From Escherichia coli (GTDB taxonomy: Bacteria > Pseudomonadota > Gammaproteobacteria > Enterobacterales > Enterobacteriaceae): DNA of 64,000 bases. The stretch is from the NCBI RefSeq assembly GCF_024700885.2, contig NZ_CP117016.1; one strand, written 5' to 3'. Shown here piece by piece: positions 5,716 to 19,624 of this stretch (positions within the stretch are counted from its first letter, which is position 1; the number at the start of each line of letters is the position of its first letter). Made by a program: the position numbers and the translations under genes. A model generated the notes under the pieces. It did no database searches. It was given only the letters and a program-made list of their open reading frames with translations, and was not told the DNA's origin.

Positions 5716-6465
5716 TCAGATGGTCGAAATCAGCATTCTGTGACCTTCGATATCCAGACGGCGAAAATTCATCCCATAGGCCTGCGCCAGATTTGGCGGC
5801 GTGAGCACCTCTTCCCTGCGTCCACTGGCCAGCATTTTTCCACCTTTTAGCAACCACGCCCGATGCGCATGACGCAATGTATGGTTGAGATCGTGACTGC
5901 TCATCACAATCGCCAGTCCTTGCTGACACAGCGCGCTCAGAATTTTGTCTAATGCACTTTGTTGCGCAACATCAAGACTGTTCATCGGCTCATCAAGAAG
6001 CAGCAATTGGCCTGCGGGATTGGCTTGTGGTGTGATTTGCAGCACCACCGCAGCAAGACGTACGCGTTGCCATTCGCCGCCGGAAAGTTGATTGGTGCTA
6101 CGTCCGAGTTTGTCATCAAGAGCCAGCGCCCCTGCGACATCATTCAGTAGTTCGGTACGCGTTTTATCGTGCTGATGCAGTGTCAGGTAGTGCCAGACCA
6201 GCATTGCAAACGGCGGCGTCTGCTGTTGTGAAAGATAGGCGCGATGCAGCGCGAGTTTTGTTGCGGACCATGCTTCCAGTGGTTGCCCCGCGAACTGAAT
6301 GCTTCCCTTACCGCTGGTCATTCCGGCCATTCGCGCCAGTAAGGTACTCTTACCCGCGCCATTCGGCCCCACCAGATGCAGGATCTCCCCAGCCCGAACC
6401 TCGCCAGAAAGCGGCCCAAGGCGGGTAGATTCCGCAACATCCTGTAACTGCATCACAATAGACAT
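5716..6465 (-). CDS. btuD: Vitamin B12 ABC transporter ATPase
   Basis: 249-aa ORF with Walker [10 protein letters not shown] and ABC signature LSGGE. Confidence 0.9.
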
Positions 6466-12400: not shown

Positions 12401-12790
12401 ATGATTGACGCTCATGACTTCACAAGATGGGTGCGCACACAGGACACCCGTCTGGCTCCCATTCTTCGGGGATTATTTGATCTCTACATTCGTGGTCGTG
12501 ACAACAGAGCACGCACCACAAAACCGGAGAATGTGGATACCCTTTATTTCACAGTAGACGACTGCTACCGCGTGGACTTCACACCACACGGACTGGCGTT
12601 GCACTGCCTGACACCGCACGGCGAATCACTGCTGGCGTATTACGACTCCCCGGCCTCCGTATTTGCGGCAATGCTGGCGCATCGCACTGCTGGCGGGTGT
12701 GCCTCGCTGAGTGAATACACCGCTGAGTTTAACCGCCTTTCCGCCCTCTTCTCGCAGGAGTGGCAGCGCGTGACGGGATACCAGCCATGA
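12401..12790 (+). CDS. Prophage early-region hypothetical protein
   Basis: 129-aa ORF whose stop overlaps the A start (ATGA). Confidence 0.45.
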   Translation: MIDAHDFTRWVRTQDTRLAPILRGLFDLYIRGRDNRARTTKPENVDTLYFTVDDCYRVDFTPHGLALHCLTPHGESLLAYYDSPASVFAAMLAHRTAGGCASLSEYTAEFNRLSALFSQEWQRVTGYQP

Positions 12791-15627
12791 GTGAGTTTGC
12801 ATGGAGCTGGAATGAACCACGGCCAGCCATTGATCCGGCCAGATTTACGGAGCGCAGGCAGGAAACTGAAACCGACCTGCAACGCGCCATCCGTTACTAC
12901 CTTGAGGCAGACAAAAAGGCCCAAGAAGAACAGGAAGCGAAAGAGGAAGCCTTTTTCGCACAATCCGCCATGGGTAAAAAACTCATGGCATCCCTTGAGG
13001 AAGCCGGACAGCGTGAAAAGCTGGCACAAAGCATCATCAGTAAGCGCCGGGCAACAGAACAAGACCCGGTGGCCCGTGCCTTTGCCACACTGAAGGTGCT
13101 TCCCGTTTATCTGCGAGAACCCCTGAGCCGCCACCTCTCTTTCCTGCGCAAAAAACAGGAAGCCGATCGCCGGAAAGGCAAAAAGAGCTGGCAGGCGGAA
13201 CGCTATGCACGCGGAACCCTGCGCAAAATATTCGAACGTCTGGATCGCACTGACGGACGCTGGCTGACACAGGGTTATCGCTCCATTGCCGGACGCGAAC
13301 GCCTGGACGATTTGCTTTACCTGCCGCAGCTCAACAAACACCAGGTACAGACACTGGCCACCATGACGGCAGCAATGTTCAGTAGCACATTCGAAAAACT
13401 CTGCGATGGCTTTGGCGCGACCGATGGTGAGCTGACCATGGATGTAACGCTGAAGGCGTATCAGATGCTGGCCCGCATGGCGTTACATCTGCACGCCATG
13501 CCTCCACATTATGACGCACTGACAACAGATAGAGATCGGAGGAACGAACCGGACACAGAGCTGCTGCCAGGCGCAATCCTTCGCCTGACCTGTGCTGAAT
13601 GGTGGAAACGCAAACTGTGGCTATTACGTTGCGAGTGGAGAGAAGAACAACTCCGCGCCGCCTGTCTGGTTTCCAGAAAAACATCGCCCTATCTGAGCCA
13701 GGACGCGTTAAGCGAGTTTCGCGCACAGCGCGAGAAAACACGCGATTTCCTGAAAGGTTTCATGCTGGAAAACGAAGACGGGTTCACGATTGATCTCGAG
13801 ACAGTGTATTACGCGGGAGTAAGTAACCCGGTTCACCGTAAGGCAGAAATGATGGCCACCATGAAGGGGCTGGAACTTCTGGCCGAGGCCCGTGGTGACA
13901 AAGCGGTGTTTCTGACTGTCACCTGCCCGTCAAAATACCACGCCACAACAGAGAACGGTCATCCGAATCCCAAATGGAACGGGGCCACCATGCGCGACTC
14001 CAGCGATTACCTGGTTAACACGTTTTTTGCGGCGGTCCGCAAAAAACTGAACCGCGACGGTCTGCGCTGGTATGGCATCCGCACGGTGGAGCCTCACCAT
14101 GACGGCACCGTGCACTGGCATATGATGGTCTTTGCTCATCCGGAAGAAATCGACAGCATCGTGGCCATCACCCGCGATATTGCCATTCAGGAAGACCGCC
14201 ACGAGCTGGGCAATGATATTACTCCGCGCTTTAAGGTGGAGTATGTCGACGGCTCAAAAGGCACACCAACCAGCTATATCGCGACCTACATCGGAAAAAA
14301 CCTGGACAGCCGCGCCGTGGATGGCATCGACCCGAAAACGGGCAAACCACGCGTTGACCACGAAACAGGTAAATCAATGGCCGAGAGCGTGGAGCGCGCC
14401 ATCGGCTGGGCGCGCCTTCACCGGGTCCGCCAGTTCCAGTTCTTTGGCATCCCCTCCCGTCAGGTGTGGCGTGAACTGCGCCGCCTTGCCAGCCAGATGG
14501 CACGCAACCCGGAAGGCCCGCAACGGCTGAAGGATGACGCAATGGATGCGGTACTCGCTGCCGCTGATGCCGGGTGTTTTGCCTCCTACATTGAAAAACA
14601 GGGTGGCGTACTTGTTCCACGCAAGGACTACCTGATTCGCACCGCCTACGACCTCGCAGATGAGCTGAACGATTACGGCGAACAGAGCGTACAGATTTAC
14701 GGGATCTGGTCACCACTCATCGGGGAATCCTCCCGTGTGTGCACGCACCCGGATAACTGGAAGCTGGTAAGACGTAAACCGGAAGCGGAAGACAGCACCC
14801 GCGAAAATGATTTTGACCTTCAGGGCGGCCCTGCCGCCCCTTGGACTCGTGGCAATAACTGTCCCCGTGTACAGGAAACAGACAACAACGGGACAGAACA
14901 GCCGGAAGAACGGCCAGCACCGTGGCCGCAGCTCCCTGACGGCGTTGAAGTGAACGAATGGATGCATTCACTGAAACGGCACGAACGCCGGGCGCTGATG
15001 CGTTCGCTTCGTGACAAACAGGCAAAAAACAGCAGCGATGAAATGCAGAACTGGACACAGAGCCGCAAACAGCCACAGCCTTTACCTGATAACCACGAGT
15101 TACTCGCTAAAGAATGGCGGGAGTCTGCTGAATCTCTCGGCCTGCATATTGGTGAACAGCAGATGCAGCACCTGTTACGGGGCGGCAGTCTGTACGTTGA
15201 CGGCAGCATCATTGCACCGCAGGGATTTGAAATTGTACGCAAACCGGATACCCGCCCGGACAGCCGAATCACGCAGCTCTGGCAACGCCTGAGCCGTAAT
15301 CACGGCGTAAGCAGCACGGAGATCCGCCATAACCCGGTCGCCAGCTATCTGGAACAGCTGGGGGCATCAGACCCTGAAGCCGCCGCACGCCTGGCATCCA
15401 CACTTCAGCAAGACCAGAACACCATGAAAACCCCCGTTACCGTGCTTTCTGACATGCTGCGCGCCATCCGTGACGCAGAGCACGCACAGAGAATCAGTGA
15501 AACCACTGAACGCGCCCACCGCAAAGCAGACCTGCTGCGGGGTAGCCTGACCAGTGGAAACAAAAAACAGACAGAAACGGGACTCACAAATCCCGTAAAT
15601 GAGCAAAAAACGTGCCGCGATATATGA
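12787..15627 (+). CDS. A: Rolling-circle replication initiator (P2 gpA-like HUH endonuclease)
   Basis: HUH motif region TVHWHMMVFAHPEE and tyrosine motif YIATYIGKN; 946 aa, longer than I recall for P2 A. Confidence 0.8.
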   Translation: MSEFAWSWNEPRPAIDPARFTERRQETETDLQRAIRYYLEADKKAQEEQEAKEEAFFAQSAMGKKLMASLEEAGQREKLAQSIISKRRATEQDPVARAFATLKVLPVYLREPLSRHLSFLRKKQEADRRKGKKSWQAERYARGTLRKIFERLDRTDGRWLTQGYRSIAGRERLDDLLYLPQLNKHQVQTLATMTAAMFSSTFEKLCDGFGATDGELTMDVTLKAYQMLARMALHLHAMPPHYDALTTDRDRRNEPDTELLPGAILRLTCAEWWKRKLWLLRCEWREEQLRAACLVSRKTSPYLSQDALSEFRAQREKTRDFLKGFMLENEDGFTIDLETVYYAGVSNPVHRKAEMMATMKGLELLAEARGDKAVFLTVTCPSKYHATTENGHPNPKWNGATMRDSSDYLVNTFFAAVRKKLNRDGLRWYGIRTVEPHHDGTVHWHMMVFAHPEEIDSIVAITRDIAIQEDRHELGNDITPRFKVEYVDGSKGTPTSYIATYIGKNLDSRAVDGIDPKTGKPRVDHETGKSMAESVERAIGWARLHRVRQFQFFGIPSRQVWRELRRLASQMARNPEGPQRLKDDAMDAVLAAADAGCFASYIEKQGGVLVPRKDYLIRTAYDLADELNDYGEQSVQIYGIWSPLIGESSRVCTHPDNWKLVRRKPEAEDSTRENDFDLQGGPAAPWTRGNNCPRVQETDNNGTEQPEERPAPWPQLPDGVEVNEWMHSLKRHERRALMRSLRDKQAKNSSDEMQNWTQSRKQPQPLPDNHELLAKEWRESAESLGLHIGEQQMQHLLRGGSLYVDGSIIAPQGFEIVRKPDTRPDSRITQLWQRLSRNHGVSSTEIRHNPVASYLEQLGASDPEAAARLASTLQQDQNTMKTPVTVLSDMLRAIRDAEHAQRISETTERAHRKADLLRGSLTSGNKKQTETGLTNPVNEQKTCRDI

Positions 15628-15673
15628 AGCACGCACAAAACAGGCAAAAGAGGGATTTCAGAATCCCGTAAAC
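15561..15673. repeat. Two 40-bp imperfect direct repeats, each with an internal inverted repeat, spanning the A stop and parM upstream region
   Basis: 15561-15600 versus 15634-15673 share 29 of 40 positions and the core AATCCCGTAAA; acggga/tcccgt and gggatt/aatccc dyads. Confidence 0.6.
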
Positions 15674-16979: not shown

Positions 16980-17042
16980 CACAACGTCAGGGCGAGTTCG
17001 CCCTGATCTCCATCTCAGAACATAAACAAGAAGAGCGACTTA

Positions 17043-17426
17043 ATGAGCAAAATCAACTATCAGGCATTACGTGAACGTTATTCACCTGCACCAGTACCAA
17101 AATGCCCTATTTGCTGCGAAGAAATGTCAATTCAGCGAATATCTGGAGCACAGGTTGTTTATGGCTGCTCCGGTTATGGTGATGATGGAGATTTCAAAAT
17201 TGGTCGAACTCTTGCCGACGAACATTATGAAAAATCACGCGTAACAGTGTTGGATGTCGGGGATCCTGAAGTATTGGCGCTACTTGATTGGCTGGAAACC
17301 AAAGACAACCGAATCGCTGAACTGGAAAAAATCGCCACTGACTATGCACTTAAATTCCAGAAAGCACAGGACGCATTAAAGTACGCCGCTTTGCTGCATA
17401 GCAGGTCAGCGCAGCTACAAGACTAA
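17043..17426 (+). CDS. Hypothetical protein with CPICC motif and C-terminal coiled coil
   Basis: 127-aa ORF in the variable region between A and cos. Confidence 0.45.
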   Translation: MSKINYQALRERYSPAPVPKCPICCEEMSIQRISGAQVVYGCSGYGDDGDFKIGRTLADEHYEKSRVTVLDVGDPEVLALLDWLETKDNRIAELEKIATDYALKFQKAQDALKYAALLHSRSAQLQD

Positions 17427-17516
17427 CTTAAAGCGGAAGATTAATACATGGTGAGTCGGGGTAATTTGTTTTTATCCCGACAAATAAACAAAAAAGTGGA
17501 CTATCTCTGTAGTATC

Positions 17517-18047
17517 TTATTCAGCATCGTCTCGTGCAGTCTGTGCATACGTCACAACAACGCCCAATGCATTAGTTTTCTTTTCAACATAGATAATATT
17601 GTCATATTCATAGTTACCATACGGATAGCAAATAAGAATATTTTTATGCAGATCGGGATCATCAACAAACGCTCCGGAACAGCTTCTTGAACTACCGGAT
17701 GTATACTCATACGGTGCAACATATGATGATGTTACTCCTGGTAAAAAATAAGTCACCATCATAAGAGGGATAATCAGGAATATCCCTGTAAGAATGCAAG
17801 AGCCAGCATAAACCTTCAGGTATTCCGACAGTCCTTTCCAGCCACTTTGCTTCACTACCCCCCTCTTCACCAGAAACAAGGAGAAGAAAAAGGACATACC
17901 CATACTACATAAGATGTAATAATTGGATATACGCGAATTAAGATATGTAATCCTGTAGATATCTGCCCTCCACCAGTAAAAGAGGAAAATAATCCCTAGC
18001 ACTGAAACAGTCATGCAAATCAAATAAGGATATGAATCTTTCTTCAT
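17517..18047 (-). CDS. Low-GC prophage cargo: small integral membrane protein
   Basis: 176 aa with 3-4 predicted TM helices, about 25-30% GC, in the P2 tin/old-equivalent position. Confidence 0.55.
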   Translation of the reverse strand: MKKDSYPYLICMTVSVLGIIFLFYWWRADIYRITYLNSRISNYYILCSMGMSFFFSLFLVKRGVVKQSGWKGLSEYLKVYAGSCILTGIFLIIPLMMVTYFLPGVTSSYVAPYEYTSGSSRSCSGAFVDDPDLHKNILICYPYGNYEYDNIIYVEKKTNALGVVVTYAQTARDDAE

Positions 18048-18049
18048 GT

Positions 18050-18577
18050 CTTGCGCTCATTAAAATTTCCCTGCTACGAACAAATTTACCATCCGTTTTT
18101 TGCGCAGAAAACAGCACGATGCACACTGCACGATAGTGCACAAATTTGCACAATTTTTTTGAACGACTTTTTACCCTTCCGGCCCGCATGGCGGCTGGAT
18201 CCGTCAAGGATCCGTGCGTGCACAAAAAAACGCGTTTTTTCTGCGCGCAGGTGACGGGGGAACAGCCCGCGTTTCAGGGGGTAAATAGTATTCCCTGAGC
18301 GATGTCGCAGCGACATAACAGAATGGCCATATTTCTCACGCTGAGCGTGAAAAAGATGTGAGGGCTTTTGATTTGATGGGGTGAAAGGTAAGGCCGTCAA
18401 AATCGAACTGAGGCGGTGAGAACATGCAGTCAGCGCGGTGGGATTGCGTAAGAGTCTGACCGTCGATGATGGTAATAAACAGGAAAGCGTCGTGAAATTA
18501 TCTGATTGATACAGGAGCTGGAGAGTCGGGGCATAAATTTTTTATGCCCCGGCGAAGCAGCGGACAAGCGAAGCGCG
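18050..18577. other. Non-coding region expected to contain the cos site and packaging signals
   Basis: By position immediately upstream of portal Q; contains TGCAC repeats (18120-18151), ggatccgt direct repeats and palindromes; exact cos ends not identified. Confidence 0.35.
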
Positions 18578-19624
18578 TCAGGATGTGGGCTGGGTGTCTA
18601 ACAGTGCGTAAGGGTTAAAGCGAATCACCTCTTCGCCAAGCCAGTCATTGATGTGCTTCATGGCCTCCATGACGGGCATCAGCTCGTTAATTGCGTAAAC
18701 CCGCGCGGCCTTCTCCACATCACCAAACGCACTTTTTTCGCCTGGCATCGCCCCCATCAGTTGCGGCGGAACGCGGTGCGCAGCCAGCACATCATCACGG
18801 GATGCCACCTTAACATTCATGAACTCATCCTTTGCGGTGATCTGCTGGAACGGCAAAATTTGCACCCCCTCTTTGCCACCGTTGGGCGCATGAATGAGCA
18901 CGTTTTTAAACGCACCACCACCACGTGCACCCTGTAGCGTTTCTTTCAGGGAGTCCATGCTTTCGCGGTTTACCTGCGCTGCACCGATGTAGATGATGCA
19001 CCCGGCGTGGGATCCGTTGTCGTAATACAGTTTTCTGAACATGTCCGCCGAATGAGACAGGCTGGCCGAGAGTAATGCGCCGAGATATTCCGGCATGCCG
19101 TAGATTTCCTGGTTAATGTCAGGATTCATCAGGTGGCACACTTTGCCAGGGCGAAACTGAAACGCGTCCTTGCCATCCTGCACATACCACCATGATTCAA
19201 GATCGCTTCCGCGTCGCATGTATTTCGCCAGGGCGTGCCGTAATTTAAGCGGTTCGCCGAGCATATTGCTTCGAAGCTCAAGGAATGCGTTACCGAACAC
19301 AAACCAGTCCAGCGCCAGCGCCGAGAAATCCTGCCGGGAAAGCAACGGGTGCGGGATGTAGCAACCGAGTAATACATTGCGCTTAAAGTAAAGCGCAGAC
19401 TGATGCCAGGACGTTTGCCGGGCAGCTCTTGCCAGACCGTACCAGTCCACCGGGGTTTCATACCACCGCCCGTTATCAGCACAGTACATATTGTCCAGCA
19501 GGTCATGCCCGGTCAGGCGATAAGGACCATCAAATGTGAATGCACTGAGCGATGATTCTTTCCTGAGCGCATCAGCGAGATCAATGCGTGAACTCATGCG
19601 CACTTTTTTATTTTTTCTACTCAT
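18578..19624 (-). CDS. Q: Portal protein (P2 gpQ-like)
   Basis: 348-aa ORF recognised as P2-type portal; adjacent and co-oriented with terminase. Confidence 0.85.
   Translation of the reverse strand: MSRKNKKVRMSSRIDLADALRKESSLSAFTFDGPYRLTGHDLLDNMYCADNGRWYETPVDWYGLARAARQTSWHQSALYFKRNVLLGCYIPHPLLSRQDFSALALDWFVFGNAFLELRSNMLGEPLKLRHALAKYMRRGSDLESWWYVQDGKDAFQFRPGKVCHLMNPDINQEIYGMPEYLGALLSASLSHSADMFRKLYYDNGSHAGCIIYIGAAQVNRESMDSLKETLQGARGGGAFKNVLIHAPNGGKEGVQILPFQQITAKDEFMNVKVASRDDVLAAHRVPPQLMGAMPGEKSAFGDVEKAARVYAINELMPVMEAMKHINDWLGEEVIRFNPYALLDTQPTS

Follow-up and report, generated by a model that had tools for sequence, protein, structure and literature searches.

Temperate phages related to P2 carry a published hotspot of accessory genes. 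The interval between gpA and gpQ of these phages is variable and often contains anti-phage cargo, as well as cargo outside defence, including partition systems and a cytolethal distending toxin (Rousset et al. 2022, PMC9122126). In P2 itself, the equivalent interval contains tin and old. This report addresses one such interval in Escherichia coli, within a stretch of 64,000 nucleotides from contig NZ_CP117016.1 (assembly GCF_024700885.2), which is referred to here as the window. The interval contains two small open reading frames (ORFs), coding for a 127-aa protein and a 176-aa membrane protein, and a group of TGCAC repeats near the cohesive-end site (cos). The original prediction, made from the letters of the window, placed this interval in the recognised A-to-cos cargo and defence hotspot where P2 has tin and old, and the published survey agrees with that placement. 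We put the probability at about 0.65 that a P88-like prophage has its swappable cargo slot at window 17031-18126 and that the TGCAC repeats are elements of the cos packaging site, not the operator of a gene. The hotspot is already published, and the locus is no new kind of system.

The chromosome of E. coli E-1246 contains a stretch with 100% identity to segment 16980-18580 of the window, and this segment is present nearly in full in 61 complete E. coli genomes. The gene order in E-1246 runs from a gpA-type replication endonuclease through ParM, a ParR-like protein and the two ORFs to the portal, terminase, scaffold and P2-type capsid genes, and the slot is therefore the gpA-to-gpQ interval adjoining cos. 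The closest named phages are P88 and P884B11 (genus Xuanwuvirus, family Peduoviridae). The variable slot (17031-18126) lies between parR and the cos flank, with a match to P88 up to 17030 and again from 18124. That the interval varies, as had been claimed, is seen from the DNA identity to P884B11, which stops at 17413, and from the identity to P88, which resumes at 18124. On the cos side, the portal gene (gpQ homologue, 18578-19624, minus strand, taken from the ORF list and called "phage portal protein" by the annotation pipeline PGAP) serves as a fixed anchor. The cargo shares its location with the P2 old/tin locus, having A (here with parMR after it) on one side and the cos and portal region on the other, and its direction of reading, leftwards starting at the cos side, is also that of old-tin. 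The prophage differs from P2 in its genus, Xuanwuvirus, and in possessing a 955-aa A protein and a ParMR module.

The TGCAC repeats mark the side of the slot that faces the portal. On the plus strand, TGCAC starts at 18120, 18127, 18137 and 18147, exactly where the original prediction had listed it, and a fifth copy starts at 18219. The motif occurs 120 times in the window when both strands are counted, and first-order Markov simulation of the window, run 300 times, gave at most two copies on one strand within 32 nt in 286 runs, three in 14 runs and four in none, so the cluster is not a product of chance. A scan of IMG/VR with the repeat pattern yielded at least 120 contigs, of which 80 loci were analysed. 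Nearly all of these loci are P2-like, with the portal stop at a fixed distance from the array and with sequence beyond the third copy that varies by locus; three or four of them carry the membrane gene. Since such a scan fixes the array by construction, the test was repeated on loci chosen by their portal gene. From 486 IMG/VR relatives, 80 were sampled, and 72 were usable, having a recognisable portal end (portals at least 99% identical) and enough downstream sequence. The copies corresponding to 18127, 18137 and 18147 are present in 72 of the 72, about 424 nt from the portal stop, while the membrane-gene junction is found in only four. Among the same 72 relatives there are 26 different junction sequences beyond the common boundary, and in 57 portal-anchored relatives identity to the window drops from 0.9-1.0 to about 0.3 at 18127/18128, going from the portal side into the cargo. 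The universal presence of the three copies and the sharp drop in identity at the first of them therefore assign 18127, 18137 and 18147 to the phage backbone. In both location and variability, the slot belongs to the gpA-gpQ hotspot, and like the published hotspot it is highly variable in content between close relatives, but its cargo here is devoid of any recognised defence domain.

The array of four that had been proposed is thus reduced to three conserved members. The three backbone repeats (18127-18151, plus strand) have 10-bp spacing and an A/T tract on their cos side (18152-18160), and we propose them as packaging-site repeats. The remaining copy, at 18120-18124 on the plus strand, lies on the cargo side outside the backbone, and it is mutated to TACAC in L073, a locus with the same gene junction. 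The array is also found in more diverged P2-like contigs, with portals 68-82% identical. Another backbone copy (18219-18223, plus strand) stands 72 bp from the array, and the same 72-bp offset is found in P2, 186, PSP3 and P4.

The geometry of the repeats is shared across the P2 family. Window 18127-18268 was compared with P2 (NC_001895, 33452-33593, L148), 186 (L230), PSP3 (L231) and P4 (L232). P2 carries TGCAT at -123, -111, -101 and -29 from its annotated right cohesive end (start 33575), 186 and the satellite P4 carry TGCA(C/T) repeats at -124, -111, -101 and -29 from the end of their records, and PSP3 has its repeats at -120, -111, -101 and -29. In the alignment of the five, the invariant runs of four to five bases coincide with the TGCA core in the -111 copy and in the -101 copy and with an A-run beside the -29 copy, and these runs stand in otherwise diverged sequence. 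A copy of the -29 type at the 72-bp offset is present in nearly all of 66 distinct P2-like sequences from IMG/VR, and this copy was outside the pattern used for the search. The window copies at 18127, 18137, 18147 and 18219 fit the 3+1 spacing exactly with a cohesive-end start at 18248. The predicted cohesive-end core (18248-18268, plus strand) is placed by the -101 and -29 distances and is an island of conservation in diverged P2-like loci, although the search pattern did not include it; within it, 13 of the 19 positions of GGTGACGGGGGAACAGCCC (18250-18268) agree with GGCGAGGCGGGGAAAGCAC, the cos sequence of P2. The palindrome AAAAAACGCGTTTTTT precedes this core. A second candidate for cos, at 18411-18429, had weak similarity and was dropped, as the repeat geometry and the conserved island fit 18248-18268.

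In 186 and P4, the repeats come after the terminators of rightward genes, and no leftward gene follows. Satellite P4 shares only the cos signal with its helper P2. The recurrence of one 3+1 geometry across the P2 family and P4 makes it most likely that the repeats serve the cos packaging site as recognition elements, and the terminase probably binds them. The repeats would then form a fixed border, beyond which the cargo is free to vary. Such a definition of the border is of practical use: cargo varies up to the last TGCA(C/T) repeat, which is seemingly fixed because packaging needs it, so that the repeat could help to delimit cargo automatically in P2-like prophages and P4-like satellites, and could inform the design of cos-based vectors. 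In the literature on the P2 terminase and cos, nothing was found on the TGCA(C/T) repeats, with Ziermann and Calendar 1990 lying outside the coverage.

Two side observations concern the repeats in other settings. In the Salmonella prophages L004, L006-L008 and L025-L027, up to two small genes of 81 or 123 aa and of 119 aa, with no Pfam match and oriented as the membrane gene, stand between the portal side and the repeats, and the A-tract motif GGTCAAAAAAA occurs twice, as if an insertion had occurred at the array. Additionally, one match of the IMG/VR pattern scan, L043 (IMGVR_UViG_3300038686_000003), is unrelated, consisting of tandem TTTTGTGCAG and TTTTGTATAG units with no P2-like genes nearby.

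The main occupant of the slot is the 176-aa membrane-protein gene (17517-18047, minus strand), which exists and is convergent to the 127-aa ORF, as first described. The gene is intact. Its product has three membrane helices, and C123 and C140 are invariant in its C-terminal beta domain. Homologues in Salmonella and Enterobacter are 173-176 aa in length and begin with the same conserved MKKxSYPYL start as the window protein. Versions of 200 and 223 aa also exist, and their extra residues are non-conserved upstream extensions (the first 24 residues in the 200-aa references). The family is small, with 57 members at E up to 0.001 in an exhaustive profile search of 1.84 billion representatives; a repetitive protein of 3074 aa that also scored against the family profile was judged to be a summed low-complexity match. 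PHROG_1416, of unknown function, is the sole family to match the protein (E 1.6e-45, over the C-terminal half), and Pfam, NCBIfam, PADLOC and the families of solved structures returned no match to it. The comparison with defence profiles that the original prediction had proposed as a check, carried out here with PADLOC-DB 2.0, likewise gave no hidden Markov model (HMM) match for the window protein at E up to 0.1.

The signals around the gene are predicted ones. An extended -10 element, TGGTAAATT on the gene strand (18083-18091, minus strand), is predicted upstream and is conserved in the alignment of all diverged copies of the cassette; the pattern TG(G/A)TAA(A/T) appears at the same place in these cassettes, about 35-45 nt upstream of the membrane-gene ATG. 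On the 3' side of the gene, a hairpin (17456-17482, minus strand) lacks a T-run on the gene strand and may act as a non-canonical terminator. The 91-nt region 3' of the gene folds at -14.9 kcal/mol (z = -1.8), and at the equivalent place a different hairpin is seen in the cassettes of lambdoid phages.

An AlphaFold2 model of the membrane protein, built on 32 sequences, reached a mean predicted local distance difference test (pLDDT) score of 91.4. The model gives three helices, at residues 6-29, 38-61 and 71-101, and so settles on the lower figure of the three to four that had been expected. The helices are followed by a five-strand beta domain at residues 105-171, and a short strand is predicted in the first loop (residues 34-36), which we take to be on the same side as the beta domain. 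The "Tyr/Gly-rich soluble tail" of the original prediction gives way to this conserved, folded five-strand domain; the tail contains nine tyrosines and five glycines in 75 residues. The residues C123, C140 and G162 are invariant across the family alignment, with the cysteine pair flanking one hairpin of the beta domain, and the mean identity is higher in the C-terminal domain (0.49) than in the helices (0.32). Lysine and arginine number two in the N-terminus, three in the first loop and five in the second loop, and the C-terminal domain is acidic. Taken together, the charge counts, the invariant cysteine pair and the model favour a cytoplasmic N-terminus and a periplasmic C-terminal domain, in which a C123-C140 disulfide probably staples the beta domain. 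A Foldseek search against AFDB50 returned the family itself and many uncharacterised proteins of about 190 aa, formed of helices plus a beta domain. One protein among the matches is annotated as "SMODS-associating 2TM beta-strand rich effector" (E 1e-7, template modelling score 0.56).

The gene is part of a cassette that is widely spread. The cassette in common with lambdoid phages (17429-18184, minus strand) comprises the gene, its leader and about 60 bp of P2-type cos flank, and blastn comparison with L014, L017, L019 (phage 434) and L020 (mEp332) gave 76% nucleotide identity over 761 bp. The region 17414-18123 has a GC content of 38.6% vs 54-55% in its flanks; the membrane gene itself had been put at roughly 25-30% GC, and 38.6% is what was measured. 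The gene is found between xis and exo in 434, mEp332, 2B8 and prophages at the lambda attachment site, where it runs antisense to the early-left operon. In P2-like prophages of Salmonella and of other E. coli, the portal-to-A slot likewise contains homologues, 55-66% identical and oriented as in the window. A blastn search found a copy of the cassette gene in 998 of 5426 complete E. coli genomes (about 18%). In 76 of these 998, the copy is at least 99% identical, and most of the others have the lambdoid type of 78-79% identity, including O157:H7 and O55:H7. Among the matches listed, the E. coli copies are annotated as "hypothetical protein" throughout. Table S5B of PMC9122126 includes a homologue 55% identical under the name "system 4", which has no Pfam match, is described as "3 TM" and, at 470 occurrences, ranks fourth among the commonest cargoes of that hotspot; in the parts of that source available to us, it stands in the survey table and was not found in the tables of cloned systems. 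The literature on 434, mEp332, Xuanwuvirus and the P2 terminase and cos yielded nothing on the membrane gene.

By its composition and distribution, being AT-rich relative to its surroundings and present in P88-like, Salmonella P2-like and lambdoid backbones, the cassette is, as far as sequence comparison can tell, a single-gene moron moving between P2-like and lambdoid phages. The lambdoid copies (L014 at 5936-6075, L019 of phage 434 and L020 of mEp332) contain about 60 bp homologous to the P2-type cos flank, in which two of the three repeats have decayed and the leader is retained. This arrangement suggests that the cassette passed from the P2-like hotspot into lambdoid phages. Outside phages, no recurring partner gene was found around six distant homologues. 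One of them, P0083 (L012, 687-1753), is followed by an overlapping gene of the NTP_transf_6 nucleotidyltransferase family, and another, P0063 (L009-L011), stands beside two large DUF4062/TPR STAND-like genes; these neighbours are hints of a defence-island context.

The other ORF of the slot (17043-17426, plus strand) encodes the predicted 127-aa protein with its CPICC motif. This protein was called an orphan, a label that falls with its match to the Pfam family Ead_Ea22 (PF13935, E 1.1e-27, residues 2-117) and to PHROG_368 (E 6e-26). Residues 1-124 are 95% identical to a 196-aa Ead/Ea22-like protein of P884B11, whose gene stands after parR, and beyond residue 124 the similarity ends. The ORF, with a GC content of 44.8% (flanks 54-55%), therefore represents a truncated member of the Ead/Ea22 family, made of 124 homologous residues and three new ones; about 72 C-terminal codons are gone relative to the P884B11 gene, and PGAP labels it "ead/Ea22-like, missing C-terminus". 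The Ead-type cargo and the imported cassette meet at a recombination joint (17414-17428), since 17413 is the last position homologous to P884B11 and 17429 the first homologous to the lambdoid cassette. The 5' two-thirds of an Ead/Ea22-like gene would have been left behind when incoming DNA replaced its 3' end.

The proposal that the repeats are packaging elements has to be weighed against the role first given to them, in which a regulator acts on the membrane gene through the repeats as an operator or activator array. The position of the array is suitable for this, 70-100 bp from the ATG on the 5' side of the gene, and a degenerate form of it accompanies the gene both in lambdoid phages and, at a displaced position, in Salmonella L004. 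The old-tin mRNA starts mapped in P2 (33424 and 33426) also adjoin the equivalent TGCAT repeats, at 27-53 bp, and the repeats could thus have a second role in leftward transcription. Some further points count against packaging elements as the whole explanation: the position of cos at 18248-18268 is predicted from comparison, the binding of terminase is deduced from conservation, and in L004-type Salmonella prophages two genes lie between the repeats and the portal-proximal region, so that the rigid repeat distance is not universal or cos lies elsewhere in that lineage. Control of the membrane gene is nevertheless an improbable purpose of the array, which is kept in every one of the 72 relatives when only four of them have the gene. 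In many relatives, the terminator hairpin of rightward cargo, oriented opposite to the membrane gene, directly abuts the array, and 186 and P4 keep the 3+1 spacing from cos in places where there is no leftward gene to regulate. Furthermore, the lambdoid copies conserve the gene and leader while most of the repeats decay, and the sole copy specific to the cargo, at 18120, is the one that is mutated in L073. It is less probable still that both ORFs are dead remnants in a decaying prophage. The identical RefSeq record speaks for this, as PGAP calls both ORFs pseudogenes, the Ead-like one partial and the membrane gene "frameshifted" (L001 6538-7113, equal to window 17517-18092), and the Ead-like ORF has truly lost its last 72 or so codons. 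However, the 176-aa frame is complete and begins at the residue conserved in the Salmonella and Enterobacter homologues, the longer references owe their additional residues to non-conserved extensions, and the near-identical copy has been kept in 76 genomes. The pseudogene label of the membrane gene is read as an artefact, because the start of the reference is over-extended.

The function of the membrane protein is a separate matter from that of the slot, and here our preference is a tentative one, at odds clearly short of even: the exclusion of other phages at the level of the envelope. This mechanism is proposed by analogy with the architecture of P22 SieA and from genomic logic. The cassette, of about 0.7 kb, is read towards gene A and antisense to the neighbouring phage operon, as would suit a moron expressed from the prophage, and the gene may well be expressed in the lysogen. 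The exclusion would operate at the step of DNA entry, through the conserved periplasmic domain of an inner-membrane protein, and this disulfide-stapled domain would target a conserved host component used in phage DNA entry. It is possible, and somewhat less than probable, that the PHROG_1416 three-helix protein represents a new single-gene exclusion or defence family, unrelated to SieA, Imm, Cor and any PADLOC model. A number of results weigh against exclusion. PADLOC-DB 2.0 gave no match to ten diverse homologues, even at E up to 1; a consensus promoter scan found no promoter upstream of the gene, so that its expression is only inferred; the periplasmic location of the beta domain is derived from charge counts, the cysteine pair and the model; and the distant homologues occur in non-phage chromosomal contexts. 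The last of these, lying outside prophages, also fits a role unrelated to phages, such as envelope stress, immunity to a bacteriocin or toxin, or colonisation fitness, which we regard as a lesser but serious chance. The most conserved part of the protein is the domain facing the periplasm, as would fit a conserved host or toxin target, and the P2 hotspot is known to bear cargo outside defence. On the other hand, neither colicin-immunity nor other Pfam families match the protein, and all Enterobacteriaceae contexts examined are prophage accessory slots enriched for anti-phage genes. A triggered abortive-infection effector that disrupts the inner membrane, like Cap15 or S-2TM-beta of the cyclic-oligonucleotide-based antiphage signalling system (CBASS), is unlikely in our judgement. 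The Foldseek match to the S-2TM-beta-annotated protein and the similar helix-plus-beta proteins of about 190 aa suit such an effector, as do the NTP_transf_6 gene adjoining P0083 and the STAND-like genes beside P0063. Yet 11 family members gave no Pfam or PADLOC match to S-2TM-beta or CBASS effectors, and none of the phage contexts includes a partner cyclase or sensor. Three helices, and not two, put the beta domain on the face opposite the N-terminus, and cysteine pairs that are invariant are typically seen in periplasmic domains. Whatever its role, a membrane protein that is very common and has no assigned function is a cheap and well-defined candidate for phage challenge.

Some neighbouring features of the prophage complete the description. 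The replication endonuclease (window 12760-15627) has 955 aa by the ORF list, with the RefSeq start 27 bases further downstream. The P2 A gene, at 2286 nt, has 761 codons, making the window endonuclease about 190 residues longer, and charged and Q/E residues abound in this C-terminal extension. Two direct repeats of 39 nt (15561-15599 and 15634-15672), 74% identical and each with an inverted repeat ACGGGA...TCCCGT, extend from the end of gene A to the region upstream of parM, and they are likely the parC centromere and promoter of the ParMR module. Two other identities for the TGCAC array were considered and set aside. As a ParR centromere, the array is disqualified by its presence in P2-like phages without parR and by the better parC candidate upstream of parM. 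By eye, none of the CRP, NtrC, marbox and DnaA box patterns fitted the repeats.

The elements of this locus each have a counterpart among known systems. The R sites of lambda cosB are repeats beside cosN to which the small subunit of terminase binds. In lambda as in the P2-type phages, several short phased repeats stand beside the cohesive-end site and are conserved together with the packaging machinery, and this is the role proposed here for TGCA(C/T). The two sets differ in sequence, number and spacing, and those of P2 type are found 29-123 bp from the cut, in the right-end arm, where binding is predicted. The Ead/Ea22 family, represented by lambda ea22 and P22 ead, has no established function. 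The 127-aa ORF resembles this family over the span of the HMM match, residues 2-117, and differs from the closest full-length relative in the loss of its C-terminal 72 or so residues. The cassette is similar to described morons (PMC3594210) as an AT-rich single-gene unit that runs antisense to the adjacent genes and occurs in phage backbones of unrelated type, with the difference that its promoter and terminator are predicted ones. The membrane protein shares with the Cap15 and S-2TM-beta effectors a plan of N-terminal membrane helices followed by a small beta-rich domain, and one Foldseek match, but it has three helices and neither an HMM match nor a cyclase partner. Another parallel in architecture is P22 SieA, likewise the product of a single gene (about 165-176 aa), with three predicted membrane helices and an orientation antisense to its neighbours, SieA having its own promoter in the prophage. 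The two proteins are not homologous by hhalign (probability 0.14%), and they differ in that the conserved motif of SieA is predicted to be cytoplasmic, whereas the conserved beta domain of the protein described here is predicted to face the periplasm.

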